DNA from: Candidatus Poribacteria bacterium
GTDB lineage: Bacteria > Poribacteria > WGA-4E > WGA-3G
DNA: 64,000 bases
Assembly: GCA_963663765.2 (NCBI GenBank)
Contig: CAXXUA010000004.1
Span: 1,056,001 to 1,120,000, forward strand
Direction of reading: 5' to 3'
Shown: in pieces, positions 7,668 to 59,370 of the stretch
Position numbering within the stretch: the stretch's first letter is position 1
Layout: each line of letters begins with the position of its first letter
Made by a program: the position numbers and the translations under genes
Notes under the pieces: generated by a model
The model's database searches: none
Told to the model about the DNA's origin: nothing
Seen by the model: only the letters and a program-made list of their open reading frames with translations

Positions 7668-8356
7668 CAGGGTTATTTTGTTTTAAGAGTTTTCTGTTAT
7701 TGAGATTTACTGAAAGTTAATACCCAGGTTTGATTTCCTAACGGAACTTTCAGCAGTTTTAGATTATTGAAACATGAACATCGCTCTTTAGTCCCGCCAA
7801 ATGCCATAAGGGGAATGCCTTAATGGCATTCATACCGTTGATTTGGCGCATTTGGCGTTGATTTGGTAGGGACGATATGTTTATAGAAACCGAATACCCT
7901 ACACAGCTCTTTAGTCCCGTAGGGACGATATGTTTATAGAAAACGAATACCCTCTACAGCTCTTTAGTCCCGTAGGGACGATATGTTTATAGAAAACGAA
8001 TACCCACCACAGCTCTTTAGTCCCGTAGGGACGATATGTTTATAGAAACCGAATACCCACAACAGCTCTTTAGTCCCGTAGGGACGATATGTTTATAGAA
8101 AAAGAATACCTTACACTGCTCTTTAGTCCCGTAGGGACGATATGTTTATAGAAACCGAATACCCACAACAGCTCTTTAGTCCCGCCAAATGCCATACGCG
8201 CATTTGGCGTTGATTTGGTAGGGACGATATGTTTATTCTTCTACGTCGTTCCTACGGAACTCAATTGGGGTGGAAAACATTTTCTATAAACATATCGTCC
8301 CTACGGGACTAAAGAAAACAAAAGTTTGTACCTCTGTGCAAAAACTTTACACACCC
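7668..8356. mobile_element. Hybrid MITE: CAGGG (ISAs1-like) left end and ISKra4-like right end, with REP cargo
   Basis: The left ~120 bp match the elements at 43117 and 58619. The right ~130 bp match the reverse complement of the element at 36290 and end in AAAACTTTACACACCC. Confidence 0.7.
7866..8236. repeat. 53-bp tandem array of a GTAG-REP hairpin (about 6 units)
   Basis: Constant GCTCTTTAGTCCCGTAGGGACGATATGTTTATAGAAA plus 16-bp linkers of the form xxGAATACCxxxxACx. Confidence 0.9.
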
Positions 8357-8379
8357 TGTATAGTGATTAAAGTAATTTC

Positions 8380-8408
8380 TTGACAAGCTTTAAGAAATAT
8401 ATTATCAT
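8380..8408 (+). promoter_or_regulatory. Sigma70-like promoter for brnT-DUF932
   Basis: TTGACA-17 bp-TATCAT, about 70 bp upstream of the GTG at 8479. Confidence 0.55.
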
Positions 8409-8478
8409 AGATTTTACATCACAAAATAGAATATTGGAGATTGCATAAAGCAATTTCCTGCGGGACAGAGATGGGTAC

Positions 8479-8793
8479 GTGGAATTCGATAAGAACCTTA
8501 AATTTGAGTGGGACGAGAACAAGCAAACAAACAATGTAAAAAAACATAAAGTAACTTTCCATGAAGCAATGACAGTATTCTCATCTTCTCTATCATTAAC
8601 AGAAAACGATGATCTACACTCACAAGATAAAAAAAGATATAAAACTACTGGATATTCTGTTAAAAACAGATTGCTGGTTGTTATCCATACTGAAAGAGGA
8701 AATGTAATTCGCATAATCTCAGCTAGAAAAGCTAATAAATTAGAACAGAGAAATTACCATGAACACCTTAAAGAATACATACCGCCTAAATAA
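8479..8793 (+). CDS. BrnT-family (DUF497) ribonuclease toxin
   Basis: FEWDENKQTNNVKKHKVTFHEAMTVF...LLVVIHTERGNVIRIISARKA matches the BrnT signature. Confidence 0.85.
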   Translation: MEFDKNLKFEWDENKQTNNVKKHKVTFHEAMTVFSSSLSLTENDDLHSQDKKRYKTTGYSVKNRLLVVIHTERGNVIRIISARKANKLEQRNYHEHLKEYIPPK

Positions 8794-9733
8794 CTTAAAA
8801 TGGGACAGTAGATTAGTTAATGAACATAAAGGAAATCTTGTAGAAATCGCAGATTATATATCTGTTTTTAGGAAGCAGCCTTTCAAAGTAGGTGGATCAG
8901 AGAATAAACACCTTGATGTAGTCGTAAATACTTCAGATGGTGACACACCTGTCGCAACAGTATCTAAGTCATATTCTCTAGTTCAACATTCTGAGATACT
9001 TGAGATTATTACTAAAGCATTTGAAAATCTGGGATATAACATAGATGAAACCGAGTGCAACCTGTATTTAACAGAATACGGCGAGCGGATGTGGTTGAAA
9101 ATACAATTCTTGAAAGGATATATATTTGATCCAGGGGATGGCCATGTACTAATACCTCAGTTGCATGTTAGGAACTCTGTAGATGGAAATGCTCAATTAG
9201 CCTTTGAGTTATCTTGGTATAGACTTGTTTGTTTGAACGGGCTTATGTGTTTAGACACAGAAAGTAGATTTAGTAAGCGACACACAATGTCTTTAAATCC
9301 TGGATTACTTATTGAATATCTAAATGAAAACATCTCAAAAATTCAACGAGAAAAAGAAGTATATACAAAATGGAAACAGAAAGAACTAAATGCTGATATA
9401 GATGCAGAAATACTACAGAACTGGATTGACACTATAGTCTCTGATAGGTGGGGGCGCAGTAATGCTGAAAGAGTATATAGTATTATAGAAACAGGGCAAG
9501 ATGCAAAGATCACAAGATTCAAAGACAAAAAAACTGAAGAAAATAAAGATACTTATATGGTTAGAATTTCTTTGGAAGGTAATGTGCCTGGAGCACAACC
9601 TGCAGAAAATATCTATGATGTTGCTAATGCCCTTTCTTGGATTTCATCCCATCAGAATTCACTTCAGAAGCAATATAAAATGATGCTACAAGTTCCAAAG
9701 ATGTTAATGGATCTTGAGAAATCTCTTGAATAA
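8759..9733 (+). CDS. DUF932-domain protein
   Basis: VSKSYSLVQHSE...NSVDGN...YRLVCLNGL...H pattern typical of DUF932. Overlaps the 3' end of brnT. Confidence 0.75.
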   Translation: MNTLKNTYRLNNLKWDSRLVNEHKGNLVEIADYISVFRKQPFKVGGSENKHLDVVVNTSDGDTPVATVSKSYSLVQHSEILEIITKAFENLGYNIDETECNLYLTEYGERMWLKIQFLKGYIFDPGDGHVLIPQLHVRNSVDGNAQLAFELSWYRLVCLNGLMCLDTESRFSKRHTMSLNPGLLIEYLNENISKIQREKEVYTKWKQKELNADIDAEILQNWIDTIVSDRWGRSNAERVYSIIETGQDAKITRFKDKKTEENKDTYMVRISLEGNVPGAQPAENIYDVANALSWISSHQNSLQKQYKMMLQVPKMLMDLEKSLE

Positions 9734-9784
9734 AGGACACCCTCCCAATTGTTGAGTCTCGTAGGTAGGGTATTGCACATCCTA

Positions 9785-25415: not shown

Positions 25416-25629
25416 CCCATAGGCGTCAATTTAAGGGTTTTGACCTCTTGTGGGAGGGGTTTTCAACCCCGACAGAAGCCAAACGCGCTTCTGACGTTGA
25501 TTTGGATTTTATGTGCATTTGCTCTCAAATCGGGGTTGAAAACCCGCCAAATGCCATACGCACATTTGGCGTTGTTTCACTCCAACAAGAGAAATGCCAA
25601 CACTTTTTTCTTAAATTGACGCTTATGGG
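25416..25629. mobile_element. CCCATAGG-ended MITE inserted in a REP with a 15-bp TSD
   Basis: TIR CCCATAGGCGTCAATTTAAG / CTTAAATTGACGCTTATGGG. AAGAGGTCACCTCGT duplicated at 25401-25415 and 25630-25644. Confidence 0.85.
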
Positions 25630-25779: not shown

Positions 25780-26212
25780 GGTAATAAAACATTTCCCCAA
25801 CGGTAGGCGCGCTTTGTAAGCGCGCTGTTGCGACTTGATGTGCCAGCGCGCTTACAAAGCGCGCCTACCAGGGAGGTAGATAAAATTACCTGATTTATTT
25901 ATTAATCTTCATAACCCAATCCCTACGCGTTCAACTACCGATTTTGATTGTCAAAGTTCATTAGGTGTCAACTTAAGGAATTTATTCTCTTGTGGGAGGG
26001 GTTTTCAACCCCGACAGAAGCCAAACGCGCTTCTGACGTTGATTTGGATTTTATGTTCATTTCCACTCAAATCGGGGTTGCAAACCCGCCAAATGCCATA
26101 CGCGCATTTGGCGTTGATTCACTCCCACAAGAGAATATGCCAACACTTTTTTCTTAAGTTGACACCTATGGGGCGGGGAGACCCCGCCCCTACGATTTAG
26201 GTTAATTTGGTA
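25780..26212. repeat. Cluster of further REP-bearing MITE relics
   Basis: REP doublet GGTAGGCGCGCTTTGTAAGCGCGC..GCGCGCTTACAAAGCGCGCCTACC ending TTAATCTTCATA, a second GTGTCAACTTAAG MITE, and a TTAATTTGGTA end like that at 7198. Confidence 0.7.
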
Positions 26213-35654: not shown

Positions 35655-35854
35655 CAGGACATACGCACCTAACGGTAGACGTGCTTTGTAAGCGGGGAAT
35701 GCCAAAAGGCATTCATACCGTTGATTTGGGGGAATACCATAAGGTATTCATACCGTTGATTTCTTGATTTGGCGCTGGAAACACAAATAATGTTGAAAAT
35801 TACATCTTTTTCATCACAATTCTTGATTAAATCATGAAAACTGCGTAAGTCCTG
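35655..35854. mobile_element. CAGGACTT-ended MITE with two tiny hairpin inserts
   Basis: CAGGACATACGCA / TGCGTAAGTCCTG ends. Relative to the empty copy at 41108 it has extra sequence at 35694-35771. Confidence 0.8.
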
Positions 35855-36104: not shown

Positions 36105-36833
36105 CAGGACTTACGCACCTAACGGTAGGCGCGCTTTGTAGACGGGGAATGCTAAAAGGCATTCATACCCGGGGAATGCCTAATGGAGATTAATAAATAA
36201 ATTAGGTGATTCTATCTAACCCACCCTGGTAGGCGTGTTGGCACATCAAGTCCCAATAGCGCGCTTACAAAGCACCAAATCAACGGTATGGGTGTGTAAA
36301 GTTTTTGCACAGAGGTACAAACTTTTGTTCTCTTTAGTCCCGTAGGGACGCAATGTTTATAGATAGGTGTAATCACCCTCTCTTGAGTTCCGTAGGAACG
36401 ACATAGAAGAATAAACATATCGTCCCTACGGGACTAAAGAACTGGGAAGGGTACTTGTTTTCTATAAACATATCGTCCCTACGGGACTGAAGAGTATAGT
36501 TGATATTAACAATATTTCCTTATATTGACACCTATGGGTCTCTGTGCCCGCAATCTCTCATTTAATCAGTTGCGGCGGTGCACAGAGACCCCGCTCTACA
36601 ATGGAGAATGTGCAGTTTGTGCAAAAACTTTACACACCCCAACGGTATGAATGCCAAAAGGCATTCCCCGCCTACCGTGAGAGAAATATTTATTACCGAA
36701 TTAATAAATTAATCTTCATATGGCATTCATACCGTTGATTTCTTGATTTGGCGCTGGAAACCGAAAAAATGCTGAAAATTACACCATTTTCGTCATAATT
36801 CTTCATCAAATCATGAAAACTGCATAAGTCCTG
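36105..36833. mobile_element. Five-level nested MITE complex
   Basis: Outer CAGGACTTACGCA...TAAGTCCTG ends. The internal layers are described in the findings. Confidence 0.75.
36290..36639. mobile_element. 350-bp non-autonomous ISKra4 derivative (MITE)
   Basis: TIR GGGTGTGTAAAGTTTTTGCAC at both ends, sharing its first 18 bp with the IS at 6114. Perfect 9-bp TSD CAACGGTAT. A second left end lies at 35905. Confidence 0.9.
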
Positions 36834-37290: not shown

Positions 37291-37694
37291 TGCTTTGTAA
37301 GCGCACCCCCGATGGTAGGCGGGGAATGCCTAAATGGCATTCATACCGTTGATTTCTTGATTTGGTGCTTTGTAAGCGCACCCCGATGGTAGGCGGGGAA
37401 TGCCTAAATGGCATTCATACCCGGGGAATGCCAAAAGGCATTCATACCCGGGGAATGCCAAAAGGCATTCATACCGTTGATTTCTTGATTTGGTGCTTTG
37501 TAAGCGCGCTGGAAACCGAACAAATGCTGAAAATTACACCATTTTCGTCATAATTCTTCATCAAACATGAAAACTGATTAAGTCCTGAATATATTATAAT
37601 CAGTTGAATCTTGTTTAGATTGCAAATTAGGTTTGATTTCAAAAAGTCTTCAAATGTACAATATCAATCAGAAGAGGGGATTTACGATTAACTT

Positions 37695-43116: not shown

Positions 43117-43457
43117 TAGGGTTATTTAGTTTTAAGAGTTTTCTGTTATTGAGATTTACTGAAAGTTAATACCCAGGTTTGGTTTCCTAACCGAACTTTC
43201 TGCATCAGTTTTAGATTATTGAAAAATGAATATCGCTCTTTAGTCCCGACAAATGCCATACGCGCATTTGGCGTTGATTTGGTAGGGTTGATATGTTTAT
43301 TTTTCTATGTCGTTCCTACGGAACTCAAGAGGGTTAGATAACATGTTTCTATAAACATATCGTCCCTACGGGACTAAAGACATGGACAAGATGGCAACAC
43401 ATAAAATTAACGACATAGCAAAATATTATCAAAAATATTGAAAACTGAATAACCCTG
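43117..43457. mobile_element. CAGGG-ended MITE nested in the element above
   Basis: TAGGGTTATT / AATAACCCTG ends with TSD TTATCAT(T/A)G. Confidence 0.85.
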
Positions 43458-46091: not shown

Positions 46092-49000
46092 TTAGCGCGT
46101 CAGAGCGAGCTTTAGTATGGCGTATTCGGGCTCGATACCATCTGTCACTACAATTTCGCAGAAATAGATGCCGCGAGCTAAGTTTTCGCCACTGCTGGTT
46201 TTTCCGTCCCATTGAGTTCCGTGTCTACCGATGTAATTACCAGCAGACATAACTTCATTGTCCTTTAGGACTCGAACTGGGCGGAGAGTCACGTCATAGA
46301 TGACAATACTGACAGTGGATGTCCGGTTTAGAGTGAAGGAAATCCGCGTACTATCCTTAAACGGATTAGGATGATTATACGGCTTCACTGCTAATATTGG
46401 AGCGTCCGAATACTCAACAAAGAAACTGAACTGATAAACAGCGGTGTTTGCTTTGCGAGCACCATCGTTATCTTCAGGGACGTTACCCTGTTGATGCGCA
46501 TTGTCAGAAACTTCTAACTTGACCACATATTCTCCTGGTTCAAGATATTCATCAGGGAATACAGGTGAAGAAAGTGTATATAGAACTTGCGTTGCTGATT
46601 TTTGATCATCAGTAAGATCAATTGGAGCAACCAACGTTCCCCCACCTTTCTTCGGTGCTTCTATAACAAGTTTGATGGAACCGACATTCACGCCAGTTTC
46701 TGCATCGCCATAAGTTAGCGATATAGTGGGTCTGGCATTTTCTTTATCGTCGTTCCCAGTTTGCTTATTGAACGTTTGCTTATAGGTCAAACGTGCACCG
46801 TCTTGAGGTGCTGACGATGTGATGATGGGTGCAGCGGTATCAAAGTCAACCGTAAATACACCTTTCGCTGATGAAGAGTTACCATTTGTATCAGTTGCAC
46901 GAACTTCAATTGTATAAGAGCCTTCATCAAGAGGGTTCTCTGGCATGAAATCTGCGCGAGTGATACCTGTAACATCTGCTTCAGCATCGTCCATTGTACC
47001 ACCTGTAACTTCTTCGCCATTATCATCCATCACGGTGATAATGATTTCAGCTACTCCGGATTCATCATTGGCACTTGCCGAAACAGTCGGAAGTCCTCTG
47101 TGAATAGTTCCCGAAGGAGTGATAGAAGAGATAATAGGTGCGGTGGTGTCAATAACTACAGTAAATGACCAAGTGTGAACCGTTGTGCCACCCAAACTCT
47201 CTGCAATAACTTGCATAGTATGTGTGCCTGGTTCAAAACTATCTGAAATCTCAATTTGTCCATTCTTAATCTTGTCAGCTGTAATCCTATGATTTGCTGG
47301 TCCAGGATCAACACTGCTAACAAACGGAACAAACCCTTTATTCACGTCATTTTCATCGCGAATATAGAATTCAACACTCAAGATATCAGATTGTTCGTCG
47401 GTAATTACAGCAGAAATGTTTACCCAACTATCTTTGACGATACCAGATGGTCCTACTTCTGAAATGACAGGTGGTGTTGTGTCTAACATCACATTGAAAA
47501 CAACAGTTGCTTGCGCAGTCTTTTCGTTTTCATCGGTGACTTCAACCATTACAATATACTCACCAGTAGCCAAATCATCTGAAGGTGTATAAGTGAATTG
47601 ATTTTCTTCAACTTCTACAGGTGCATCTTCGCCGTTGATGGTAAATGTTGTCAACTCTACCTCTGTCATACCAGTGAAATGACCTCTGAAAATCGGTTTA
47701 CCTTGATAGTAGGTCTGACCTGCAGCAGGTGAAAGAATCGCAACACTTGGTCCTGGTATATCTACAATGAAATCAACAGAAGTCGTTGCAGACTCACCGT
47801 TTGAATCTGTCACTTTTGCAGTTGCTCTATATTGCCCATGTAATAATTCAATCTCACCTGTGAATTGATTACCGTCATGTTTAGACACATCAACATTTTC
47901 GCCACCAACTGTAAGAACTACTGCGACATCACCAACTCCTGTATACTCGCCATTGACAATTATTGAACCATTGTCATAAGAGGTGCCAGCTACAGGTGAT
48001 TGAATTGTTACTGTCGCTTCAGGATATACAATTGAGAACGTCGTTGACGCATCAGCTGTTTCGCCATTGGCATCCATCACTGAAACGGATACTGTATGAC
48101 TACCTTCACCCAACTTGTCAGATAAGTTATAAGTAAACTCATTACCATCTGGTTCAAGTACTATCACATCACCACTATCAACCGTTAGCATAACGGATAC
48201 AGGTGCGACACCAATAAACGAACCTGAAATATGACGATAGGTGTGATCATAAGTGTCGCCTGCTTCAGGAGAGGATATAGAAACTGAAGCATCAGGATAG
48301 ACAACTGAGAATGTCGTTGTCGCATCAGCTGTTTCGCCATTGGCATCCATCACTGAAACGGATACGGTATGGCTACCTTCATCCAACTTATCAGATAAGT
48401 TATGAGTAAACTCATTACCATCTGGTTCAAGTGCTATCGCATCACCACCATCAACCGTTAGCATAACGGATACGGGTGCGACACCATTGAACGAACCTGA
48501 AATATGACGGAACGTGTGATCATTAGTTCCACCCTCTGTCGGTGAAGATATGGATACTGACGCATCAGGATACATAACTGTGAAAGTTGTTGATGCTTCC
48601 GCTGTTTCGCCATTGGCATCCATCACTGAAACGGATACTTTATGACTACCTTCACCCAACTTATCAGCAAGGTCATGGGAGAATTCGTTACCTTCGGTTT
48701 TCACATCATCGGGATCTACAGCTTCACCATCTACCATCAAAGTCACAGAGACTTCACCGACACCGGTAAACTCACCTGAAATATGACGATACATGTGATC
48801 ATAAGTGTCACCTGCTACTGGTGAAGATATAGAAACTGATGCTTCAGGATAAACAACTGAGAACGTTGTTGATGCCTGAGCAGTTTCACCATTGGCATCC
48901 ATCACTGAAACGGATACTGTGTGGTTACCTTCATCCAACTTGTCAGATAATGTATGAGTAAACTCATTACCATCTGGTTCAAGTGCTATCGCATCACCAT

Positions 49001-52000
49001 CATCAACCGTTAGCATAACGGATACGGGTGCGACACCAATAAACGAACCTGAAATATGACGGAACGTGTGATCATTAGTTCCACCCTCTACAGGTGATGA
49101 TATGGATACTGACGCATCAGGATACATAACTGAGAAAGTTGTTGACGCATCAGCTGTTTCGCCATTCTCATCCATCACTGAAACGGATACTGTATGGCTA
49201 CCTTCATCCAACTTATCAGCAAGGTTATGCGAGAATTCGTTACCTTCGGTTTTCACATCATCGGGATCTACGGCTTCACCATCTACCATCAATGTCACAG
49301 AGACTTCACCGACACCGGTAAACTCACCTGAAATATGACGGAACGTGTGATCATAAGTGTCACCTGCTACTGGAGAAGATATAGAAACTGATGCTTCAGG
49401 ATAAACAACTGAGAAAGTTGTTGATGCCTGGGCAGTTTCACCATTGACATCCATCACTGAAACGGATACTGTATGACTACCTTCACCCAACTTGTCAGAT
49501 AATGTATGAGTAAACTCATTACCATCTGGTTCAAGTGCTATCGCATCACCATCATCAACCGTTAGCATAACGGATACGGGTGCGACACCAATAAACGAAC
49601 CTGAAATATGACGATAGGTGTGATCATAAGTGTCGCCCGCTTCAGGAGAGGATATAGAAACTGATGCTTCAGGATAAACAACTGAGAAAGTTGTTGATGC
49701 CTGAGCAGTTTCACCATTCGCATCCATCACTGAAACGGATACTTTATGACTACCTTCACCCAACTTGTCAGATAATGTATGAGTAAACTCATTACCATCT
49801 GGTTCAAGTGCTATCGCATCACCACTATCAACCGTTAACATAACGGATACAGGTGCGACACCAATAAATGAACCTGAAATATGACGGAATGTGTGATCAT
49901 TAGTTCCACCCTCTGTAGGTGATGATATGGATACTGACGCATCAGGATACATAACTGAGAAAGTTGTTGATGCTTCCGCTGTTTCGCCATTCTCATCCAT
50001 CACTGAAACGGATACTGTATGGCTACCTTCATCCAACTTATCAGCAAGGTCATGAGAGAATTCGTTACCTTCGGGTTTCACATCTACGGCTTCACCATCT
50101 ACCATCAAAGTCACAGAGACTTCACCGACACCGGTAAACTCACCTGAAATATGACGATAGGTGTGATCATAAGTGTCGCCTGCTTCAGGAGAAGATATAG
50201 AAACTGATGCTTCAGGATAAACAACTGAGAAAGTTGTTGACGCATCAGCTGTTTCACCATTGGCATCCATCACTGTAACGGATACTGTATGACTACCTTC
50301 ACCCAACTTATCAGATAATGTATGAGTAAACTCATTACCATCTGGTTCAAGTGCTATCGCATCACCATCATCAACCGTTAGCATAACGGATACGGGTGCG
50401 ACACCATTGAACGAACCTGAAATATGACGGAATGTGTGATCATTAGTTCCACCCTCTGTAGGTGATGATATGGATACTGAAGCATCAGGATAAACAACTG
50501 AGAAAGTTGTTGACGCATCAGCTGTTTCACCATTGGCATCCATCACTGTAACGGATACTGTATGACTACCTTCACCCAACTTATCAGATAATGTATGAGT
50601 AAACTCATTACCATCTGGTTCAAGTGCTATCGCATCACCATCATCAACCGTTAGCATAACGGATACGGGTGCGACACCATTGAACGAACCTGAAATATGA
50701 CGGAACGTGTGATCATAAGTGTCACCTGCTACTGGAGAAGATATAGAAACTGATGCTTCAGGATAGGTTACTGAGAAGGATGCTGATGCTTGTGCGGTCT
50801 TACCATTTTCAGAAGTGACCATTACAGTTACCATGTGTTCACCTTCTGACAACTTATCTGAAAGTTCAGCAGTGAACTGGTTACCATCTTTCGTCTCTTC
50901 AACGGCTTCACCATCTAACATCAAATCAATAGTAACTTCACCAACACCAGAGAACTCACCTGCGATATGACTGAATTCATGATCATAGGATCCACCAGCT
51001 GTGGGTGATTGAATAGATACTGTCGGTTCGGGATGGAAGACTGAGAAGACCACCGTTGCTTCGGCTTTCTTTTCGTTTGCATCAGTTGCTGTGACAACTG
51101 CTGTATAATCACCATCAGCTAACACAGAATCTGGAGTATAACTATCAGCATCGTCTACCAATTCAACCGCATCACCATTAATAGTAAGGGTTACAGAGAC
51201 GGGTTCAGCAACGCCAGTTGCTTTCCAAGCTATCTCAGGTGTGCCATGATCATACAATTGACCTCCAGCAGGAGAATGAATCGCTACGGATGGTCCAGGT
51301 ATGTTTACTGTGAATTCAGTAGTTGCTTCAGCAGTATTACCATTCACATCAATAACCATTAGCATGACTGTGTGGTCGCCATCACTCAACGGTTCGGTTG
51401 GTTTATAGGTAAATTCGTTACCACTGACATCCATTACGGCTTCACCATCTATAGAAAGTGTTCCACTAACAGGGTCAGCACCCGAGAACGTACCTGTAAT
51501 AATAGGTACTCCATGGTTATATTCCTGACCTGCAGTCGGTGTTGCAATGGTTGCTGTCGGTACTGGATGTTCAACTATAAATGTCAATGATGTTTGTGCG
51601 GTTAATCCGCTACCATCTGTTACCTCTACAGCGACTGTATGTGTATCTTCACCGAAACCTTCCTCAGGTGTATAAGTGAAGTTACTTCCGTCAACTGAAA
51701 TAGATTCAGAAACATCTACATCATTTACGGTAAACTTGGTTATACCTACATCACCGCCACCAGCAAAGAACCCAGTAACACTACCAGGATTTGCATCAAA
51801 TTCTTGTCCTGAAGCAGGTGCAGTAACGACAACTGTTGGGTCTATACCTTCAACAGCAAAGTTCACTGATGCTTCACCAACATTACCAAGGCTATCTGTA
51901 ACCATGACTGTGAATTGGTATGCACCACCAGCGAGTTTGTCTATGCGGGTATAAACTACAGAGTCTATATCCTGTTCAACCATTTCCGGATCAACAGCGA

Positions 52001-55000
52001 TTGGCACTGCGTCCTGTACGACCTCTTCTGGACGGAGCCGATCTAACGACACAACTGCTGTATTGTCAGCACTGATGCCAACACCTAAATCTCCATCGTT
52101 GTATTCTGCGTGGAGCGTTGGTAGGTCATTGATTGTAACCCCTTCAGTAGGCGTTACAAAAGTGATAACCGGTGCAGTATTATCCAAGTTGATATTCGCC
52201 AAGGCGAAGTCCACAAAACGTTCACGTATTTCTACGCGTCCATGTGGCGTGGTATGTTGACTTGGCAATTCCATCAGATTATTTGCAGACAGCATGAACG
52301 CATACTCGCCATCGCTTCCTGCAGTATAATCATCACCATCCCTGAACTGTCCACCAACGACAACACCGATAAGATCATCTTCAAACAAAGTACCGTTATT
52401 GACGTTGAAACTTACAGCGATTGAATCGCGAAGTGGAATTGGATCAGGAAGTTCGCCTTCAACTAGCACATCATCAACTTCAGTGACCATCAATTCCATA
52501 ATATCACTAACTCGGAAGTTTAGGACATGAACTGTGATAATAGGTGAAGCAACTTCATTTTCATGATCTTGCCAGTTTATGTGATTACCTTCATCATCAA
52601 CTTCACGATCTGCAACAAGGGCATAATAAGTGTAAGCACCGTTTTCCAGCAACCCTATATCAACAGTAATCTGTCCATCATCAAGGCTACCTTCAACATG
52701 TGATACAGAACCATCAGGTGCAGTTTGAACTAAACCGATCTTACCACCTTCATAAGTGATAGGTTCAGCAGTTGGTTCAATGGTAAATGTAAGTTCTGTT
52801 GACTCAACAGCATCATCTACAATACCACGAGCAGTGAAGCTGCCATCTTCGTTTGCTGCCAGCGAACCAACATGATCAGCAACATCCGTGATATTTGTCG
52901 GACCGAGTGGAGGCACATCATCAACATTGTCTAATGAGAATGACGCTTCTACACCATCACGTTGCATGTATTCGGTGTGTGCCTTATTCTGGGGTGTGAG
53001 AGAAATTGCTCGCACCACATACTTGTTTGTATCTAATGAGACATCACGTTGAGAATCATCACCGCGAGAGATCGTATCTTCAAGTCTGTTGATAGGTTCA
53101 TCATCTGCAGTGAATGTATCTTCCAATGCTAACTCGCGTGTATCAACAATAAACTGCCATTTCATGTAGCGTCCGGGAATTGCAACTACAGATTCGCCAT
53201 CAGCTTCGGTTCCCGCTTGGGTAATTCCGATAAGACCACCAGTTATATCGTCTAAATCATCAATACCTGGTAATTCGGATACATCCACTTCAACAGGATC
53301 AACGGCTGTACCTGTGATACGTTCCCATGTGTCATCAACGGGACGTGCTACCTCAACACGGATACCATCGGTAGGTGCTGAAGTTATATAATACGTATAC
53401 ACATTGAAAGTGAGTTCACCTTGTGGAGCACCACTATCAGGATTCACTGCACCATCTGAATTGTCAACAGTGACTGCGATCACACCTGGATCAGGTCGGT
53501 AGGTGTTCTCAACATTTATTGTGATTTCGTCACCTTCATAATCATCTGCTTGAATGTTTCCGTATTCAAGGAATACTTCATCTGAAGCAGTGTCATCATC
53601 ATAAGGTTCCGCATTGTCATACGCTAACGCATGAACTGTGAACGAATAAACGTCGTCTTCTGTCGGATTATACATCAAGTCGTACGGATCTTTGGAATGA
53701 TTTTGGAGATACTTGTCATTGTAGACCTCCTCGTCATCATCCGCCAGAGTGCCGACATCAATCGTTACAGTAAATACACCACTACCTTCAGCTGTTTCGG
53801 TAACTTCACCGATAATAGCACCTTCAGGTAACGTTGTTAGCAACTTCACGCCGCCATCTTTGTAAGTATGACGGTCTGCGGTTGGTGTAAGTGTTAATGT
53901 AACTACCGGAGATTTGACGGTGGGATCGTATTTGTCAACGAGTGCACTTACTGTGTAAGTTCCGTCACCGTTGTCAATTAACATTGCATCAGCAGGTTCA
54001 ATGCTTGTTACAACGACACCTATTGGTCCGAGTGGTGCAACATCATCATCGTTATCTACTGAGAACTGTTCTGTATAATCTTCACCCATTAGGATCGGTG
54101 AGATGTCAGTACCATCTGCACCAACAGCATAGGCACGCACCATATAACGATTCTCATCAAGTGAGGCGTCACGGGCAGCAGGACTATCCACAGTTATGGT
54201 ATCATCCAGTAGCGTTGTATCCACAGTAATTATCCATTTGAGGTAACTACTGGTAGAATCTATATGGAGAGTATCGTCTACATAGACTTCTGCTAATGTT
54301 TTACCTTTAAACATAATCGCTTCTGTCACGCCACCGTCCATACCAGCAGAATCGTCAACAGCAACTTCACCAATCTTAATTGGCGTATCATCACCTGGAC
54401 GCATAACTTCAATGCGGATAGATTCTGTTGCTGGAACAGTACGTCGTGGTGTATATCCCTCAAGCATTATTGTGCCTTGCGGTGCACCACTATCCTGGTT
54501 TTTCATAACAACGGAATCTGTATCAACGTCTACGACTAATACTACAGGATCAACAGGATGTACATCAGCATCAAGATTTATAGTGAATGCATCTGAAATC
54601 CTTAAGTCTTGATCCTCTGTTAACGCATCAAAATCCACACCATTTATGTCTATTGGATGTTGGAGTGCGTTGGTAGTAACCGTGCGAACAAATACCGTAT
54701 CTCCTGCTTGCAACAAATCTTCCAAGGCATTGCCAACTTCCCAAAGGATTGTCCGAGTGTCACCAGCAGCACCTTCGCCTTCAACTAATTCTACTTCATC
54801 AATTGACTGCCAAACACCGTCAGCCTCTAAATCAGAATAATATACTGTAATTGACGCATTAGGATGTTGTGGATCGCGATTGAGTGGATGAACAGTACGT
54901 TCATCAATCGTAACCGTCAATGTTACATCTCTGGCATTGTCATAGATTACACCAAATTCATAGGCATCGTCTTTGCCATTATGGTTAATGTCACCAAGAG

Positions 55001-57884
55001 CTGCCATTGTAACGCTTGAACGATCATATTGATATGGTACAATTCTTATATGTTGCGGTTTAACATGAGAACCGATATTGAGGAGTGGATCAATACCCAT
55101 GGCACGAACACCATAGTCACCGATCAATAGCGGTAATTGATCACCTTGAATGGGGAACTTATAGATACGTTCAGGTTCAAAGGTAAATGGAATCAGGTCA
55201 ATGTCATCTACGACAGCACCTAATAGATCCGTCAACAATGTGTATTGGTTATTAGTGAGCTCAATACCTAAGAATCCTCTAAGTTGATCTACAACCAATG
55301 CTTGTAAATCCTGTGCTTCTATTACCCCTGGAACTCCAGTCTCTAAGAGCCCTAAGAGTGATCTTAGTGCAAAATCGCGAATATCAATTTCTATGTCGGA
55401 TCCAGGCACACTCACTTTGAAACTATCATCTAATGAAGATGGAAATCTTTCGTTGATGAGATCCCAGATATCAGATGATAGAATAGATGCTTCAATCGTT
55501 AAAGGCAACCAAGTGCCTACTGGCTCTCCATTTTCATTCAGATCAATTATTTGATAAAGAAGAAAACCTTCATCAACTCCGATCTCACCAGGATCTGTTG
55601 TGCCTTTAATAGTCAACAAAGACGAAGTGCCTTCAACAGGAGCAGTAGCAACATACGCACCATTATTGTTCAAGTAACCTGTGGTGTCTGCGTTTGCTGT
55701 ACCGATAGTAAGTTCTGCTTCTGGCGCTGAAGTGTCAGTTTCAAACCCTACAGCAATGTGGTCAACCGCTTCTTCATCAGCATTGTAAACGACCGCTTCT
55801 AAAGTATATGCACCGTCATCCATTGAATCAATATTTGCATACCAGAGCGATTCTATTTCATAATCAATCAAGGGTACGGTGAAAACAGACGCTAACATAG
55901 GATCGTAATTTGATTCAAAATTATTTGTTAACTCATTAGCATTTCGCAACAATAAGTTTTGCAGTTTACGAAGTTCCTGTCCTGGAATGGTTAGATCTGT
56001 GTTTCCAGCAGAAAGAAGCGGAAGAGCTATTCTGACAATTTCCGCTACGACATCATCAGTAAACATCGCATCAAGGATACCTCGATCTGCAATTTGAAGG
56101 TTGCGCGGATCAGGCATCGACCAACTATTGATAGTATACTCCCTATTCGCATCAGCGACTGTCGTGGCATCTCCACTTGGTGAAAGCAAAGCTTCTGCAA
56201 GTGCCTCACGATTAACAATAACTAACTTCACAGGTTCAACCAGAGTGACTTCAAAGTAGTAATTCACATTTCGTCCAGGAATAATACCTACATCACCTTC
56301 CCAAACGACACCTTTATCAGTCGTTACTGGATTCATTTGAAGTGCGATATATTGTTCTTCCAATCCTTCTTGTGAATACCGAAGTACAACCTCAGAAAAA
56401 AGCTGATTCCCTAATGCTGGCCAAGCAGGTAAATTCGCGGCAGCAAGTGTCTCTTCCAATCGGAAGGTATAAGGGATTGTATCTGATTGGAATAAATCTG
56501 GGGCGATCCGCTGACCTTGTTCCGCCTCAACGCCATTGAGCCTAATCTGAACGCTACCACCTTCAAGTGTTGATGGTACGCGCACGTACAAGTTCAAATT
56601 ATCTCTTGTTGAGAATTTTGACGTGTTAGGTGTATCATCGTAAAGAGCTTCAGACAATGTCGGTGTAATTCCGTTACCAAAGTTCTCAAAATCTAACCCC
56701 GGTGGTTCATCAGCGAAAATAGAGAACGCTTGACGCGAAGTTAAATTTTGTCGAATCGTTTCTTCAGGAATAATTCCAGCTGGGATTTGTGCTATAAGAA
56801 ACTCAACCGCAGGTTCAACTAAAGCGTCGGCCGCGGCAGAATCAAGTCCGGCAGCTGCAATAAGATCACGAATAAACGCTCTACCATGAATCCTATTCAA
56901 TGAAAGCCCACCAAGTCTTGACTCACCATTTAGGTTTGAAGTAACAAGATCAACTGAGGGCAATTCTCCATCTGTCGGAGGTTCCGGCTTATCTGGAGGA
57001 TCTGGGGGTTCTGTTGGAAACTCCGCAGTTGCAAATCTAATCACAACGGTTGCAGGGGTTGAATCCGCAGTTCCATCATTGGCTATTAGCGTTAATGTTA
57101 CAGTGGCACCAGCGATGGTAGGCATCGCTGCCGTGGGAGCAGTCTGCGTAATCGTCACACTGCCACCGGTAAGCGTCCCACTCGGAATACTATAGTATCC
57201 CGCTGCGCTTGCTGGGTCCACCGAAATAGAACCTGTTACAGTAACAGCATCTCCGTTAACATCCGCAGTAGCAAAAGCAACATCAAACGAACCGCTTTGA
57301 GCGGCTGTCGGACTTGAGGTTCTAATAGATACTGTCGGAGGTTCCGGATCTGGGTCCGGACCTGGATCTACACCAAGCACAGTCTGAATTGTTTCTGAAT
57401 TAGTTGGTGTCAGGGATGACTTCCAAGTCTCATCTGCAAAAAGCAAACGTAGAAGTTCTAAAACTGCTACTGTATCCTGCATCAAAGTCCGAACATTTGA
57501 ATCCATTAAAACTGTTCGGATACCTTCGTCATCTGTAAGTAGCCCTATGACCTCGGGAGTTGCGCCTGGTACAACGGCAGTTATTAAGGCTGGATTACTA
57601 AGTATCGCATCAAGTGCCTTTCCAAAATCACCTTCATATAACAAATCAATGAGTGGTTTAGCATCAATTAAAGTTTCAGGATCGCTTAGTTTTGCGAGAA
57701 CTTGAACAGTCAAATCCTGGAGATCAGCGCGCAAAAGCGTTTCATTAAAATCATCATACACCATTTGGGCGAGTTCTTCAGAAGTTGGATCCGCATCTTG
57801 CCCAAACACAGTGTCTGAAATAATTGTACTGTGAAAAACACACAATATAAAAATCAAAAAACAAACGAGTGTTCGTTTTTTCAT
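46092..57884 (-). CDS. Giant (3930 aa) acidic Ig-like-repeat surface protein with a FlgD-Ig/T9SS-like tail
   Basis: ATG at 57884 after GAGGAGG, signal peptide MKKRTLVCFLIF, many Big-like domains, and tail YNHPNPF..TRISFTL...IYD...WDGKT..GENLARGIYF. Confidence 0.9.
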   Translation of the reverse strand: MKKRTLVCFLIFILCVFHSTIISDTVFGQDADPTSEELAQMVYDDFNETLLRADLQDLTVQVLAKLSDPETLIDAKPLIDLLYEGDFGKALDAILSNPALITAVVPGATPEVIGLLTDDEGIRTVLMDSNVRTLMQDTVAVLELLRLLFADETWKSSLTPTNSETIQTVLGVDPGPDPDPEPPTVSIRTSSPTAAQSGSFDVAFATADVNGDAVTVTGSISVDPASAAGYYSIPSGTLTGGSVTITQTAPTAAMPTIAGATVTLTLIANDGTADSTPATVVIRFATAEFPTEPPDPPDKPEPPTDGELPSVDLVTSNLNGESRLGGLSLNRIHGRAFIRDLIAAAGLDSAAADALVEPAVEFLIAQIPAGIIPEETIRQNLTSRQAFSIFADEPPGLDFENFGNGITPTLSEALYDDTPNTSKFSTRDNLNLYVRVPSTLEGGSVQIRLNGVEAEQGQRIAPDLFQSDTIPYTFRLEETLAAANLPAWPALGNQLFSEVVLRYSQEGLEEQYIALQMNPVTTDKGVVWEGDVGIIPGRNVNYYFEVTLVEPVKLVIVNREALAEALLSPSGDATTVADANREYTINSWSMPDPRNLQIADRGILDAMFTDDVVAEIVRIALPLLSAGNTDLTIPGQELRKLQNLLLRNANELTNNFESNYDPMLASVFTVPLIDYEIESLWYANIDSMDDGAYTLEAVVYNADEEAVDHIAVGFETDTSAPEAELTIGTANADTTGYLNNNGAYVATAPVEGTSSLLTIKGTTDPGEIGVDEGFLLYQIIDLNENGEPVGTWLPLTIEASILSSDIWDLINERFPSSLDDSFKVSVPGSDIEIDIRDFALRSLLGLLETGVPGVIEAQDLQALVVDQLRGFLGIELTNNQYTLLTDLLGAVVDDIDLIPFTFEPERIYKFPIQGDQLPLLIGDYGVRAMGIDPLLNIGSHVKPQHIRIVPYQYDRSSVTMAALGDINHNGKDDAYEFGVIYDNARDVTLTVTIDERTVHPLNRDPQHPNASITVYYSDLEADGVWQSIDEVELVEGEGAAGDTRTILWEVGNALEDLLQAGDTVFVRTVTTNALQHPIDINGVDFDALTEDQDLRISDAFTINLDADVHPVDPVVLVVDVDTDSVVMKNQDSGAPQGTIMLEGYTPRRTVPATESIRIEVMRPGDDTPIKIGEVAVDDSAGMDGGVTEAIMFKGKTLAEVYVDDTLHIDSTSSYLKWIITVDTTLLDDTITVDSPAARDASLDENRYMVRAYAVGADGTDISPILMGEDYTEQFSVDNDDDVAPLGPIGVVVTSIEPADAMLIDNGDGTYTVSALVDKYDPTVKSPVVTLTLTPTADRHTYKDGGVKLLTTLPEGAIIGEVTETAEGSGVFTVTIDVGTLADDDEEVYNDKYLQNHSKDPYDLMYNPTEDDVYSFTVHALAYDNAEPYDDDTASDEVFLEYGNIQADDYEGDEITINVENTYRPDPGVIAVTVDNSDGAVNPDSGAPQGELTFNVYTYYITSAPTDGIRVEVARPVDDTWERITGTAVDPVEVDVSELPGIDDLDDITGGLIGITQAGTEADGESVVAIPGRYMKWQFIVDTRELALEDTFTADDEPINRLEDTISRGDDSQRDVSLDTNKYVVRAISLTPQNKAHTEYMQRDGVEASFSLDNVDDVPPLGPTNITDVADHVGSLAANEDGSFTARGIVDDAVESTELTFTIEPTAEPITYEGGKIGLVQTAPDGSVSHVEGSLDDGQITVDIGLLENGAYTYYALVADREVDDEGNHINWQDHENEVASPIITVHVLNFRVSDIMELMVTEVDDVLVEGELPDPIPLRDSIAVSFNVNNGTLFEDDLIGVVVGGQFRDGDDYTAGSDGEYAFMLSANNLMELPSQHTTPHGRVEIRERFVDFALANINLDNTAPVITFVTPTEGVTINDLPTLHAEYNDGDLGVGISADNTAVVSLDRLRPEEVVQDAVPIAVDPEMVEQDIDSVVYTRIDKLAGGAYQFTVMVTDSLGNVGEASVNFAVEGIDPTVVVTAPASGQEFDANPGSVTGFFAGGGDVGITKFTVNDVDVSESISVDGSNFTYTPEEGFGEDTHTVAVEVTDGSGLTAQTSLTFIVEHPVPTATIATPTAGQEYNHGVPIITGTFSGADPVSGTLSIDGEAVMDVSGNEFTYKPTEPLSDGDHTVMLMVIDVNGNTAEATTEFTVNIPGPSVAIHSPAGGQLYDHGTPEIAWKATGVAEPVSVTLTINGDAVELVDDADSYTPDSVLADGDYTAVVTATDANEKKAEATVVFSVFHPEPTVSIQSPTAGGSYDHEFSHIAGEFSGVGEVTIDLMLDGEAVEETKDGNQFTAELSDKLSEGEHMVTVMVTSENGKTAQASASFSVTYPEASVSISSPVAGDTYDHTFRHISGSFNGVAPVSVMLTVDDGDAIALEPDGNEFTHTLSDKLGEGSHTVSVTVMDANGETADASTTFSVVYPDASVSISSPTEGGTNDHTFRHISGSFNGVAPVSVMLTVDDGDAIALEPDGNEFTHTLSDKLGEGSHTVSVTVMDANGETADASTTFSVVYPEASVSISSPEAGDTYDHTYRHISGEFTGVGEVSVTLMVDGEAVDVKPEGNEFSHDLADKLDEGSHTVSVSVMDENGETAEASTTFSVMYPDASVSISSPTEGGTNDHTFRHISGSFIGVAPVSVMLTVDSGDAIALEPDGNEFTHTLSDKLGEGSHKVSVSVMDANGETAQASTTFSVVYPEASVSISSPEAGDTYDHTYRHISGSFIGVAPVSVMLTVDDGDAIALEPDGNEFTHTLSDKLGEGSHTVSVSVMDVNGETAQASTTFSVVYPEASVSISSPVAGDTYDHTFRHISGEFTGVGEVSVTLMVDGEAVDPDDVKTEGNEFSHNLADKLDEGSHTVSVSVMDENGETADASTTFSVMYPDASVSISSPVEGGTNDHTFRHISGSFIGVAPVSVMLTVDDGDAIALEPDGNEFTHTLSDKLDEGNHTVSVSVMDANGETAQASTTFSVVYPEASVSISSPVAGDTYDHMYRHISGEFTGVGEVSVTLMVDGEAVDPDDVKTEGNEFSHDLADKLGEGSHKVSVSVMDANGETAEASTTFTVMYPDASVSISSPTEGGTNDHTFRHISGSFNGVAPVSVMLTVDGGDAIALEPDGNEFTHNLSDKLDEGSHTVSVSVMDANGETADATTTFSVVYPDASVSISSPEAGDTYDHTYRHISGSFIGVAPVSVMLTVDSGDVIVLEPDGNEFTYNLSDKLGEGSHTVSVSVMDANGETADASTTFSIVYPEATVTIQSPVAGTSYDNGSIIVNGEYTGVGDVAVVLTVGGENVDVSKHDGNQFTGEIELLHGQYRATAKVTDSNGESATTSVDFIVDIPGPSVAILSPAAGQTYYQGKPIFRGHFTGMTEVELTTFTINGEDAPVEVEENQFTYTPSDDLATGEYIVMVEVTDENEKTAQATVVFNVMLDTTPPVISEVGPSGIVKDSWVNISAVITDEQSDILSVEFYIRDENDVNKGFVPFVSSVDPGPANHRITADKIKNGQIEISDSFEPGTHTMQVIAESLGGTTVHTWSFTVVIDTTAPIISSITPSGTIHRGLPTVSASANDESGVAEIIITVMDDNGEEVTGGTMDDAEADVTGITRADFMPENPLDEGSYTIEVRATDTNGNSSSAKGVFTVDFDTAAPIITSSAPQDGARLTYKQTFNKQTGNDDKENARPTISLTYGDAETGVNVGSIKLVIEAPKKGGGTLVAPIDLTDDQKSATQVLYTLSSPVFPDEYLEPGEYVVKLEVSDNAHQQGNVPEDNDGARKANTAVYQFSFFVEYSDAPILAVKPYNHPNPFKDSTRISFTLNRTSTVSIVIYDVTLRPVRVLKDNEVMSAGNYIGRHGTQWDGKTSSGENLARGIYFCEIVVTDGIEPEYAILKLALTR
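48028..50766 (-). repeat. Ten near-identical ~273-bp (91-aa) intragenic Ig repeats
   Basis: YP(E/D)ASVSISSP..G.T.DHT.RHISG.F.GV...GETA.ASTTFSV repeated 10 times. Confidence 0.9.
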
Positions 57885-58334
57885 TAACTCTTCCTCCTCG
57901 TTAAGTCTAAACGAAATATAGACTAAATACTGAAGTTTTAGATGGGCAACCGAGAAACACAACAAAAACGACCGGAGGTAGGTGTTTGCCCATCCAATTC
58001 TAACATCCTACTACCAAGAAGTTAATATTTTCTTCAATGTACGCAAATATACCCCGGCAAAACCTTAATCAAGGCCAAAAGCAAGCAAAATCGGACACCA
58101 TAATTTTGTTCTTGACCCACAAACTTCTATTTCAGTGGTTAACATAACAGGTTCCAGGGTATTTTGCAAATAATATTTATTTAACTAAAAGCAGACTATA
58201 ATATAAGGACATCTGACATTTTAACAATAGTGACTTAATTAAGCAAGCATTTTAATCAGGCGTTTTCTTTTAGAAATTCTGTAAAATCCGCAGCCTATTT
58301 GATTTTAACGATTAAATTGCAATCAATATCTAAT

Positions 58335-58363
58335 ATAATACCATAATTAAGAAAACATGTCAA
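58335..58363 (-). promoter_or_regulatory. Sigma70-like promoter for the giant-protein operon
   Basis: Reverse strand TTGACA-17 bp-TATTAT with a TG extension. Confidence 0.5.
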
Positions 58364-58598
58364 ATCAAAATATCATAATTCTGTTTAATTATTACACGTT
58401 TTTTGACACTACATAATTAATTCTAATTGCTATCTTACAATTATACATTATTATTGTCAACTAATAAATGTATGAGCAATTTTAGTAACATTTTCTATCA
58501 CTCACACTCGCTCAATTTTGAAGGTTTGTTAATATTGAAACGTCAATAACACTTTAGACGTTACGCAATTTTTACAATTAACAAATACTTATCATTAA

Positions 58599-59154
58599 CA
58601 ATACCTTCGCGAATAATACAGGGTTATTTAGTTTTAAGAGTTTTCTGTTATTGAGATTTACTGAAAGTTAATACCCATGTTCGATTTCCTAACCGAACTT
58701 TCTGCATCAGTTTTAGATTATTGAAACATGAACATCGCTCTTTAGTCTCGCCAAATGCCATACGGGGAATGCCTTAATGGCATTCATACCGTTGATTTGG
58801 CGCATTTGGCGTTGATTTGGTAGGGACTAAAGAACTGGACAAGATGGCACCCTATAAAATTAACGACATAGCAAAATAATATCAAAAATATTGAAAATTA
58901 AATAACCCTGGCCAATAATAGACATTCTGTCAGATTGTGCGGGCAGTTGTAGCACATTCTGCCAGATTGTGCGGGCAGTTGTAGCACATTCTGTCAGATT
59001 CTATCGTCAAATTAGACGCTATGATAAATAAAAATACTTCAACGAAAACCTGAAGTTATTTTTATTTATGCAATCCTAACAATATCACAGAGCAATGGTA
59101 GATCAACACTATATACTCATTCAATTGAAACACTCAAAAATCGCGAAGGTATTG
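58599..59154. mobile_element. CAATACCTTCGC-ended element, copy 2 (inverted, ~2.5 VNTR units)
   Basis: Reverse complement of 42985-43982, with VNTR units at about 58921-59000. Confidence 0.85.
58619..58910. mobile_element. CAGGG-ended MITE nested in copy 2
   Basis: CAGGGTTATTTA / TAAATAACCCTG ends with a 10-bp TSD GC(G/C)AATAATA. Confidence 0.85.
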
Positions 59155-59180
59155 AGTTAATATACATTGTTGTTTTTTAG

Positions 59181-59370
59181 CAGGATTTACGCAAAAACGG
59201 TAGGCGGGGAATGCCTAAAGAAGCATGCGCGTGTGGCATGCTCCATGATTCATACCGTTGATTTCTTGATTTGGTGCTTTGTAAGCGCGCTGGAAACCCA
59301 TAAAAAAGCTGATAATTGCATCATTTTCATAATAATATTTGATAAAATCAAGAAAACTGCGTAAGTCCTG
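59181..59370. mobile_element. CAGGACTT-ended MITE with a nested hairpin insert
   Basis: CAGGATTTACGCA / TGCGTAAGTCCTG ends, perfect 5-bp TSD TTTAG, and an insert at 59206-59273. Confidence 0.85.

Follow-up and report, generated by a model that had tools for sequence, protein, structure and literature searches.

How do short repeats, such as single repetitive extragenic palindromes (REPs), bacterial interspersed mosaic elements (BIMEs) and the small dispersed repeats (SDRs) of cyanobacteria, reach new places in a genome? The question is a long-standing one, and the insertions themselves are seldom visible. It is raised in concrete form by a stretch of 64,000 nucleotides from a Candidatus Poribacteria bacterium (assembly GCA_963663765.2, contig CAXXUA010000004.1, positions 1,056,001 to 1,120,000; hereafter the window, C4:1056001-1120000), which belongs to a genome of 6.35 Mb in 15 contigs that is 97.8% complete. 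REPs and other repeats of the window are split at exact points by hairpin-bearing mini-elements, which an earlier note, made from the letters of the window, had divided into a unit A and a unit B and to which a third, C type can be added. We assign all three with high confidence to one genus-wide superfamily of ultra-small, non-coding modules, each made of a hairpin and a tail. The modules have inserted many separate times, exactly after a C, and no target bases were duplicated or deleted. Exact empty and filled sites, nesting at several levels, a cut preceded by a fixed base, a tail that is obligatory and a counting rule for hairpins and tail octamers are all legible here; they constrain the chemistry and supply concrete substrates for the REP-associated tyrosine transposases (RAYTs) and for TnpA. 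The phenomenon is at the same time extended to an uncultured phylum of sponge symbionts.

The three types share a common plan: a G, a hairpin of 7-10 bp, a linker and a tail GTTGATT followed by zero to two bases (TG). The linker is ATACC in B and is lacking in A, while the C-type unit reads GACAGAAGCC...GCTTCTGAC plus GTTGATTTG. Unit A is 34 nt long and full elements measure 34-44 nt, which is the size range that the earlier note had given for the elements as a whole; the hairpin-only B unit of 27-28 nt is also a module, and the range holds for full elements only. When folded as single-stranded DNA (ssDNA) the stems reach z-scores of -3.1 to -3.8 against shuffles and the tail stays unpaired. 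In these folds the target C base-pairs with the first G of the tail in unit A and C type, and for these two types the proposed pairing between the hairpin and its target C holds. Types A and B are tied together by hybrids, one of which (37 copies in the genome) has its stem from B and its loop from A, whereas in the other a reversed A-like hairpin replaces the loop and 3' arm of B, as at 59206-59273 (43 sites with TGATTCATAC). Neither terminal inverted repeats nor target-site duplications, by which miniature transposable elements with inverted repeats (MITEs) are defined, are present in A or B. A search of the window against Rfam gave no match at the gathering score, the sub-threshold matches being long hairpins on MITEs.

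Genome-wide the modules were collected with a pattern that allowed a few substitutions, after which inner elements were removed and the search was repeated. This census comprises 661 clusters with a total of 32,444 nt, or 0.51% of the DNA, the modules ranging in size from 27 to 44 bases: 370 clusters are single B units, 107 are two-B clusters, 135 are single A units and 16 are of C type, the remainder being longer or mixed. Of the single A units, 61 were recognisable only after an inner cluster had been taken out of the loop. The modules exceed chance expectation by a wide margin. Unit A matches four times in the window (none expected from shuffles) and the tail core CGTTGATT 20 times, against 3.2 expected and a largest shuffle value of seven. 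Sixteen of these 20 sites belong to elements; the other four lie at 11315, 34566 and, on the reverse strand, 25148 and 35153, and the first of them has no hairpin on inspection. The whole genome has 1043 occurrences of CGTTGATT, where composition predicts about 244, and about 640 of the 1043 sites come after one of six recurring 10-mers, which are hairpin 3' arms. A hairpin adjoins 26.8% of GTTGATT sites; for four scrambled motifs used as controls the share is 5-6%. Long open reading frames (ORFs) contain only 20 of 321 B loci, and the 661 clusters are, like REPs, high-copy, short, extragenic and imperfectly palindromic.

The precision of insertion can be read from sites that lack a module. 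For 394 of the 661 clusters an exact empty site exists elsewhere in the genome, defined as a 21-mer in which the left flank of the cluster (11 bases) runs straight into its right flank (10 bases). Filled and empty sites of the same repeats do coexist, as the earlier note had claimed, and the exactness of the empty sites bears out its statement that insertion involves neither terminal inverted repeats nor target duplication. Among clusters with an empty site, the sole possible insert is G...GATTTG in 357 cases, C plus G...GATT in 13 and G...GATTT or ...GATTC in nine; the body of the module is therefore constant, and its ends wobble by 1-2 nt. TAGTCCC is joined directly to GTAGGGAC in 489 of 587 such pairs, and GGTAGGC to GTGCTTTGTAAGC in 261 of 380. 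A C occupies position -1 in 612 of 661 clusters, or in 200 of 242 contexts when each distinct one is counted once, in agreement with the claim that insertion almost always follows a C; 635 of the 661 inserts begin with G. One base at the junctions fits either side (C|G...G|G), and some junctions have no common base at all.

At least 12 unrelated host classes have verified empty sites in the genome. With ^ marking the point of insertion, A occupies TYAGTCCC^GTAGGGAC and, in a MITE that also hosts C type, AAACCC^CTCC; C type occupies CAACCCC^GATTTT in a MITE. B is accommodated by GGTAGGC or TGCAGGC ^ GYGCTTTG in several variants, by the loop of A (CCAYAC^GCGCATTT) and that of another A-like hairpin (TACCAWAC^GCGTATTC), by TTGTARGC^GCGCTGGA, AGAGACCC^CGCCCTAC and CTCTACCC^GACCTACG, by two forms of GCGACC(C)^ and by short tandem arrays with AATCC^TGNAAATC. 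In 80 loci of other Poribacteria B is found in yet other hosts, typically right after the C run of a C/G-rich hairpin. What the targets have in common is a C, mostly SSC, ahead of the cut, and the sites include a MITE and short tandem arrays as well as the stems, loops and feet of hairpins. The earlier note had described insertion into REP stems: REPs are indeed hit, and the actual range of targets is broader. Its assertion of independent target sites is upheld by the host classes with empty sites and by the further hosts in other species.

Could a few ancestral insertions nonetheless account for all of this, their copies having spread passively with host REPs and MITEs or by gene conversion? 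We regard such an origin as improbable. One or two ancestral events are ruled out, because the host classes with empty sites are so numerous and because single arrays contain filled as well as empty units, and this does not in itself establish the independence of most copies. In the 43 arrays of the tandem host repeat H1 that have at least three units, a module occupies the first unit in 10 of 43, inner units in 11 of 123 and the last unit in 9 of 43. Given loop subtypes also occur in several hosts, and nesting runs in several directions, 61 A units carrying a cluster in their loop. Passive spread is nevertheless part of the picture. Both MITE copies of the window carry the identical pair of inserts, so that the C-type and A pair of the second copy was probably copied along with its MITE. 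C type fills 11 of 265 copies of this MITE; the tree needs eight changes, and the approximately unbiased (AU) test does not reject a single clade (p = 0.23). Loop subtypes partly follow the host, TTAAT being found mostly in A loops. The earlier note had looked to filled/empty polymorphism between strains or species, and none could be shown: in 29 syntenic intergenic regions, 20 of them listed, compared with other Poribacteria, the nearest of which are about 85-89% identical, no host repeat was filled in one genome and empty in another. The entire host repeat block was present or absent in these comparisons, never the mini-element by itself. In G036 and G016 the orthologues of spacer 42980-43492 lack the entire repeat block. 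The elements also break short-read assemblies, and the four public runs consist of short contigs that end at every such repeat region, none of which bridges an element.

Clusters of several units follow a simple grammar, (unit plus C) repeated, then a last unit and one tail, which is evident from what comes after ATTCATAC: of 906 such sites, 488 continue into the tail CGTTGATT and 118 into CCGGGGAAT, that is, C plus the next unit. Among the listed continuations almost none goes directly into host DNA, the tail being obligatory. Between units a single C forms the joint in 137 cases and a full tail in 23. The placement of B in A loops and the concatemers, both seen in the window by the earlier note, recur across the genome. 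Additional tail octamers, mostly CTTGATTT, vary in number from 0 to 5. At least one extra octamer is carried by 87 clusters with one B unit (282 have none), by 96 with two units (12 have none) and by all 27 with three or more units, in contrast to the A clusters, of which 135 have none and 0 have any. Two-unit clusters are not tandem duplications, because their loops differ in 70 of 96. Nesting of one full element in another, or slippage, was considered as well, and neither reproduces the letters seen in the clusters. To judge from these letters, hairpin module and tail octamer each look as if they had been added with a leading C.

It is conceivable, if doubtful, that hairpin units of 27-28 nt and tail units of 8 nt are each added with their leading C by an ssDNA cut-and-join or copy activity that belongs to none of the recognised transposase families, possibly a conserved host enzyme. 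Were this true, the units might be the smallest self-contained mobile DNA modules so far observed outside cyanobacteria; it would explain how they thrive in genomes that have no reverse transcriptase, Y1 HUH or IS110 gene and would offer a general route to REP/BIME-like mosaics.

The sequence of the modules is conserved well beyond this genome, and so is their fold. To assess covariation, the 5' arm was positioned from its own resemblance to the consensus and with no reference to the 3' arm. In the 445 B copies used here (75 distinct; 73 of 518 anchors were dropped where the 5' half was not B-like), 11 cells are doubly compensated, against 2.9 in shuffles, and 0 of 1000 shuffles reach 11. The 96 copies from other Poribacteria (40 distinct, after 16 of 112 had been dropped) give 10 against 0.5 (0 of 1000), in six of the seven pairs. 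The copies are related to one another, and the foreign loci were collected with a 19-mer seed, by which the 3' arm of the seed copy is fixed. With this proviso the covariation asserted in the earlier note is confirmed on both sets, and selection maintains the stem pairing together with a near-constant sequence across a genus whose genes diverge by 10-35%.

The exact B 19-mer is present 351 times in this genome, 3-164 times in 17 of 18 congeners examined and not at all in 12 genomes that belong to the order but to other families. It was found in at least 93 stretches of species-representative genomes, and 79 of the 80 loci listed are from Candidatus or uncultured Poribacteria. B hardly varies even where the neighbouring genes of a species share 65-90% identity with their counterparts here. 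A tail 11-mer occurs 277 times here, 4-203 times in 37 congeners and 2-22 times in the other five genera of the family (controls, 0-4), and its strong enrichment is confined to this genus. The PLSDB plasmids hold no match to A or B; in viral contigs A has none and B a single chance match inside a gene. Full-text searches of the literature for repeats, REPs, MITEs and insertion sequences of Poribacteria yielded no account of such elements.

How, then, do the modules move? One answer dispenses with a dedicated enzyme altogether. A replicative or repair polymerase stalled at a host hairpin would switch templates through a microhomology of 1-3 nt, namely the C run, copy hairpin and tail from a donor copy or from a small discrete donor strand, and then switch back. 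Several of the observations are what such a process would leave behind: the junction base fits both sides, the ends vary by 1-2 nt between host classes, the targets are C runs at hairpins, tail octamers grow in number along with hairpin units, and no known transposase or reverse transcriptase is consistently present. Random switching should, on the other hand, be ragged, whereas the ends are identical to within 2 nt in at least 12 contexts and across species, and the 137 joints by a single C are predicted by neither tandem duplication nor simple nesting. Since the sequence is near-invariant while the genes of the genus differ by 10-35%, a specific recognition step is implied. We treat template switching as a serious rival of low probability.

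A different answer starts from the kinship of the modules with their hosts. H1 and H2, the latter being the main host REP of B, are GTAG-tagged palindromes of the REP kind. The leader of H2, as a consensus of 963 empty copies, reads CCCCAAC(T/G)G(C/T)AGGCG, and this leader ends in CAACGGTAGGC (the GTAG subtype) or CAACTGCAGGC. Reversed B contains ...ATCAACGGTATG... and reads, on this opposite strand, ...AAATCAACGGTATGAATGCC-loop-GGCATTCCCC. Because reversed B shares the 8-mer leader CAACGGTA with H2, has GTAT in place of the GTAG tag and continues with a hairpin and a C run, it is best seen as a REP relative that sits inverted inside another REP. At filled H2 sites the host leader is complementary to the linker and tail of B. 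REPs are characterised in one paper as extragenic palindromes of 20-40 nt with a short 5' tag, GTAG or CGTC (PMC3733652), and another presumes that RAYTs mobilise them in single-stranded form (PMC3116915). The likeness in CAACGGTA is the strongest positive link between the modules and a RAYT-like process, and it is a resemblance only. Among the commonest contexts of filled H2 copies, approximate counts added by hand are about 125 with the GGTAGGC leader and about 38 with TGCAGGC; GCAG is carried by 62% of empty H2 copies, and B occupancy is thus skewed to the GGTAGGC leader.

On these grounds we tentatively favour, as a possible rather than a probable account, that the modules are single hairpins related to REPs and are inserted in single-stranded form by a trans-acting nuclease-ligase, with Y1 HUH proteins as the only candidate class encoded. 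The module would move as a folded single strand. A structure-specific nuclease-ligase would make two cuts, one at the hairpin foot and one about 9 nt farther on, and the cut module would be joined after a C, which would become the next base pair of the stem. Y1 HUH transposases (RAYT and the TnpA of IS200/IS605) are the only such enzyme class that the genome encodes. Our confidence that a Y1 HUH protein is the enzyme is low; it is a candidate, and the data speak partly against it.

The inventory of enzymes narrows the field. The earlier note had proposed an HUH or RAYT-like activity, a reverse transcriptase or an IS110-like recombinase, and two of these three are not encoded here: neither the reverse transcriptase model PF00078 nor the IS110 DEDD transposase model PF01548 has a match in this nearly complete genome; the HUH/RAYT class is encoded, and not beside A or B. 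The Y2 HUH model PF04986 also gave no match, and since control genomes likewise gave none this search is uninformative. The Y1 HUH model PF01797 has six matches. Four of them are IS200/IS605 copies with tnpA and tnpB, whose ends are unlike those of A and B. An intact RAYT gene (C4:621598-622074) is embedded in arrays of its own GTAG-tagged REP, and a second RAYT, at a contig end (G000 C10:24955-25277), is flanked by H2 REP arrays, carries a frameshift and is truncated where the contig stops. Another fragment of a RAYT gene is located at C5:1704530-1704673. Of 40 genomes of the genus, 29 have RAYT-like proteins and 36 have a Y1 domain of any kind. Tail motifs at two RAYT loci, L140 and L141, proved to be chance matches within a gene. 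A serine recombinase (PF00239) of 202 aa, possibly part of an IS607-like element, is present in five copies (G000 C5:772366, C4:419145, C15:122395, C13:489946 and C2:138565).

Several observations weigh against single-strand insertion by a Y1 HUH enzyme. No Y1 gene of this genome is flanked by A or B; both RAYTs have REPs at their flanks and neither has A, while the H2-flanked one has a single B-like unit upstream. A 9-mer from the 3' arm of B lies within 1.5 kb of only five of 30 RAYT loci of the genus. No PF01797 match was found in G001, G010 and G044 despite some 80-100 module copies in each (G001, 97% complete in four contigs, has 82 exact B 19-mers; G010, 94% complete, has 94 copies; G044, 92% complete in one contig, has 95 tail 11-mers), and G009 has 21 Y1 matches yet only three B copies. 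The form of the modules does not agree with known substrates either: REPINs are inverted doublets of REPs and IS200/IS605 elements have two hairpins, whereas the units here are single hairpins or direct head-to-tail concatemers. At the 3' junction the ending differs by 1-2 nt (TG, T, C or CA), and an extra C is sometimes present at the 5' junction, for which reason a conservative cut-and-join enzyme is a poor fit. Finally, a strand preference was not reproduced. Long same-strand domains exist in this genome, in regions that were chosen from the feature itself, and in half-windows of 100 kb B lies on the C-rich strand 136 times and on the G-rich strand 90 times (p = 0.003), a weak bias; in the complete chromosome of G017 the count is 34 plus to 34 minus over the first 1.92 Mb (dnaA at 4.52 Mb). 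Relative to the local gene-majority strand B is placed 104 to 126, which indicates no link.

The carrier genomes that lack a Y1 match bring in another serious rival, to which we give a low probability as well: an unrecognised transposase family, or a conserved housekeeping nuclease, topoisomerase or ligase, would read the hairpin together with GTTGATT and paste it after SSC. G044 has no match for Y1 HUH, reverse transcriptase or serine recombinase and yet keeps its tail 11-mers, and G001 has just one serine recombinase; the retention of B in almost all congeners examined and the obligatory tail point the same way. No candidate gene was found for such an enzyme, however, the copies in enzyme-free genomes could be relics, and the absences are those of Pfam models run over metagenome assemblies.

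Far less plausible is a route through RNA, in which a hairpin RNA with a U-rich tail would be reverse-transcribed at a nick in the manner of a short interspersed nuclear element (SINE). The variable number of tail octamers and the ragged 3' ends of the modules resemble the 3' tails of retroposons and would suit this route. Against it, PF00078 has no match in this genome or in G001, G044 and G017, the 5' ends are exact and show no truncation, and orientation is independent of neighbouring genes, the upstream gene being co-directional in 132 cases and opposite in 169. The elements are not oriented in the manner of transcription terminators, and such a role is not supported. A reading as integron attC sites was also set aside, there being no 5' complementary partner for the tail and no GTT between units. 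In sum, polymerase switching and an unrecognised enzyme are the rivals that single-strand insertion by a trans-acting enzyme has to reckon with, and passive spread and the RNA route are less likely.

The features of the window are collected in Table 1. At every place that the earlier note had cited for A or B the contents are as claimed, including the odd hairpin at 59221-59244.

Table 1. Modules in the window, with coordinates, strand and host context
Feature	Position	Strand	Context
Unit A with cargo (70 nt)	7796..7865	+	first unit of a tandem H1 array, TAGTCCC / GTAGGGAC
Unit B (36 nt) inside the A loop (CCATAA^GCGC)	7810..7845	+	nested in A of 7796..7865
Five empty H1 units, period ~61 nt	7866..8183	+	TAGTCCC joined straight to GTAGGGAC; array FeeeeeF (F, filled; e, empty)
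Unit A (34 nt)	8184..8217	+	last unit of the H1 array whose first unit holds 7796..7865, TAGTCCC / GTAGGGAC
C-type unit (GACAGAAGCC...GCTTCTGAC + GTTGATTTG)	25471..25504	+	in MITE, CAACCCC / GATTTT
Unit A variant, tail GTTGTTTCA, ending in ...TTCA	25546..25579	+	MITE copy holding 25471..25504, AAACCC / CTCC
C-type unit	26013..26046	+	second MITE copy
Unit A, tail GTTGATTCA, ending in ...TTCA	26088..26121	+	second MITE copy, AAACCC / CTCC
Two full B, head to tail: 35694-35728 with short tail; 35729-35771 with GAATACC/GGTATTC stem and long tail	35694..35771	+	GTAAGC / GCGC context; between TTGTAAGC and GCGCTGGA
Hairpin-only B and 5' half of a second B	36144..36184	+	loop of the second B cut by a 535-nt insertion
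3' half of the split B, long tail	36720..36750	+	partner of the 5' half in 36144..36184
Reversed B in reversed H2 REP	36276..36669	-	split by MITE 36290-36639, flanked by direct repeat CAACGGTAT
Unit B, long tail (44 nt)	37321..37364	+	H2 REP, GGTAGGC / GTGCTTTGTAAGC
Three B hairpin units, single-C joints, one long tail	37395..37492	+	H2 position, GGTAGGC / GTGCTT
Unit A, GACAAATGCC form	43248..43281	+	TAGTCCC / GTAGGG
Unit A with B in loop (B 58764-58799)	58750..58819	+	after TAGTCTC
B variant, loop and 3' arm a reversed A-like hairpin (59221-59244)	59206..59273	+	long tail, H2 REP, GGTAGGC / GTGCTT; form recurs in genome

Some further features of the window deserve mention. The H1 array at 7866-8240, with units of about 61 nt, a conserved core of 45 nt and about six variable bases per unit, is superficially similar to a CRISPR array, for which its units are too closely spaced; the genome has 43 such arrays, with 3-11 units each. 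The MITE at 36290-36639 is about 350 nt long, has the ends GGGTGTGTAAAG.../...CTTTACACACCC and is flanked by the 9-nt direct repeat CAACGGTAT, and its junction was found at four further places in the genome. A composite block of 535 nt (36185-36719) with the ends GGAGATTAATAAAT.../...AATTAATCTTCAT breaks the AT-rich loop of a B unit; the end of this block beside a half B recurs elsewhere in the genome. At 36850-37290 another MITE, GGGGTTTTCAACCCC...GGGGTTGAAAACCCC, is present in three tandem copies with a period of about 163 nt and is fused to a short H2-like palindrome. A single ORF of 3957 codons takes up 46092-57965 on the reverse strand. A related strain lacks the repeat-rich 1.7 kb of 30715-32401, because a 4855-nt contig of run X6 joins position 30714 directly to 32402.

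The modules can be compared with several known systems. IS200/IS605 elements have no terminal inverted repeats, cause no target duplication, insert 3' of a short specific sequence and have subterminal hairpins, the right cut lying some 10 nt past a hairpin. A and B likewise lack terminal repeats and target duplication, and four such insertion sequences reside in the genome; the ends of the latter are unlike A and B, however, the target here is little more than one C, and three carrier genomes (G001, G010 and G044) have no Y1 match. A reading as IS110 cargo fails on the lack of a DEDD transposase and on some junctions that share no base, and one as retroposons on the lack of a reverse transcriptase in this genome and in G001, G044 and G017. 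IS91 elements and Helitrons have no inverted repeats, duplicate no target, carry a hairpin about 10 nt before the 3' end and can form head-to-tail arrays, whereas the concatemers here have a single tail and neighbouring units that differ in their loops (70 of 96). Small repeats of mitochondrial genomes, among them the repetitive hairpin-forming elements of sponge mitochondria (PMC2800124), are likewise short hairpin modules that invade intergenic DNA repeatedly and are not known to have an enzyme of their own; they lie in organelle genomes and have unrelated sequences. The modules hence fall outside the definitions of REPINs, IS200/IS605 miniatures, MITEs, IS110 cargo and retroposons.

The closest parallels are found among REPs and SDRs. 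Like REPs, REPINs and BIMEs the modules form mosaics, and their hosts are GTAG-tagged REPs with RAYT genes adjoining. Unlike REPs, A and B are inserted within the stems and loops of other REPs. At the place of the tag reversed B has GTAT, together with the leader of its host, and A and C type have no tag. The REPIN-RAYT partnership differs in that no cognate RAYT flanked by A or B was found and that copies exist also in genomes devoid of a Y1 gene. SDRs are very small non-coding repeats that were judged mobile from their precise positions inside other repeats; SDR1-8, of 21-27 nt, were reportedly described by Elhai and colleagues in 2008 from Nostoc punctiforme and its relatives. The likeness is that A, B and C type are tiny non-coding repeats set precisely in other repeats; the hairpin-only unit has 27-28 nt and the full elements 34-44 nt. 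By one published account SDRs are reported only in Nostocaceae (PMC5861425), and by another SDR5 inserts at a fixed point within the HIP1 octamer (PMC4390886). No host class with empty sites in our genome is HIP1 (GCGATCGC), the full elements bear an obligatory GTTGATT tail, and A and B are set apart from SDRs by these descriptions and not by sequence comparison. The earlier note had placed the elements in the frame of the cyanobacterial repeats; because the modules occur in Poribacteria, SDRs can serve as an analogue only. By analogy, then, the modules appear to work like the SDRs of cyanobacteria and like REP/BIME mosaics.

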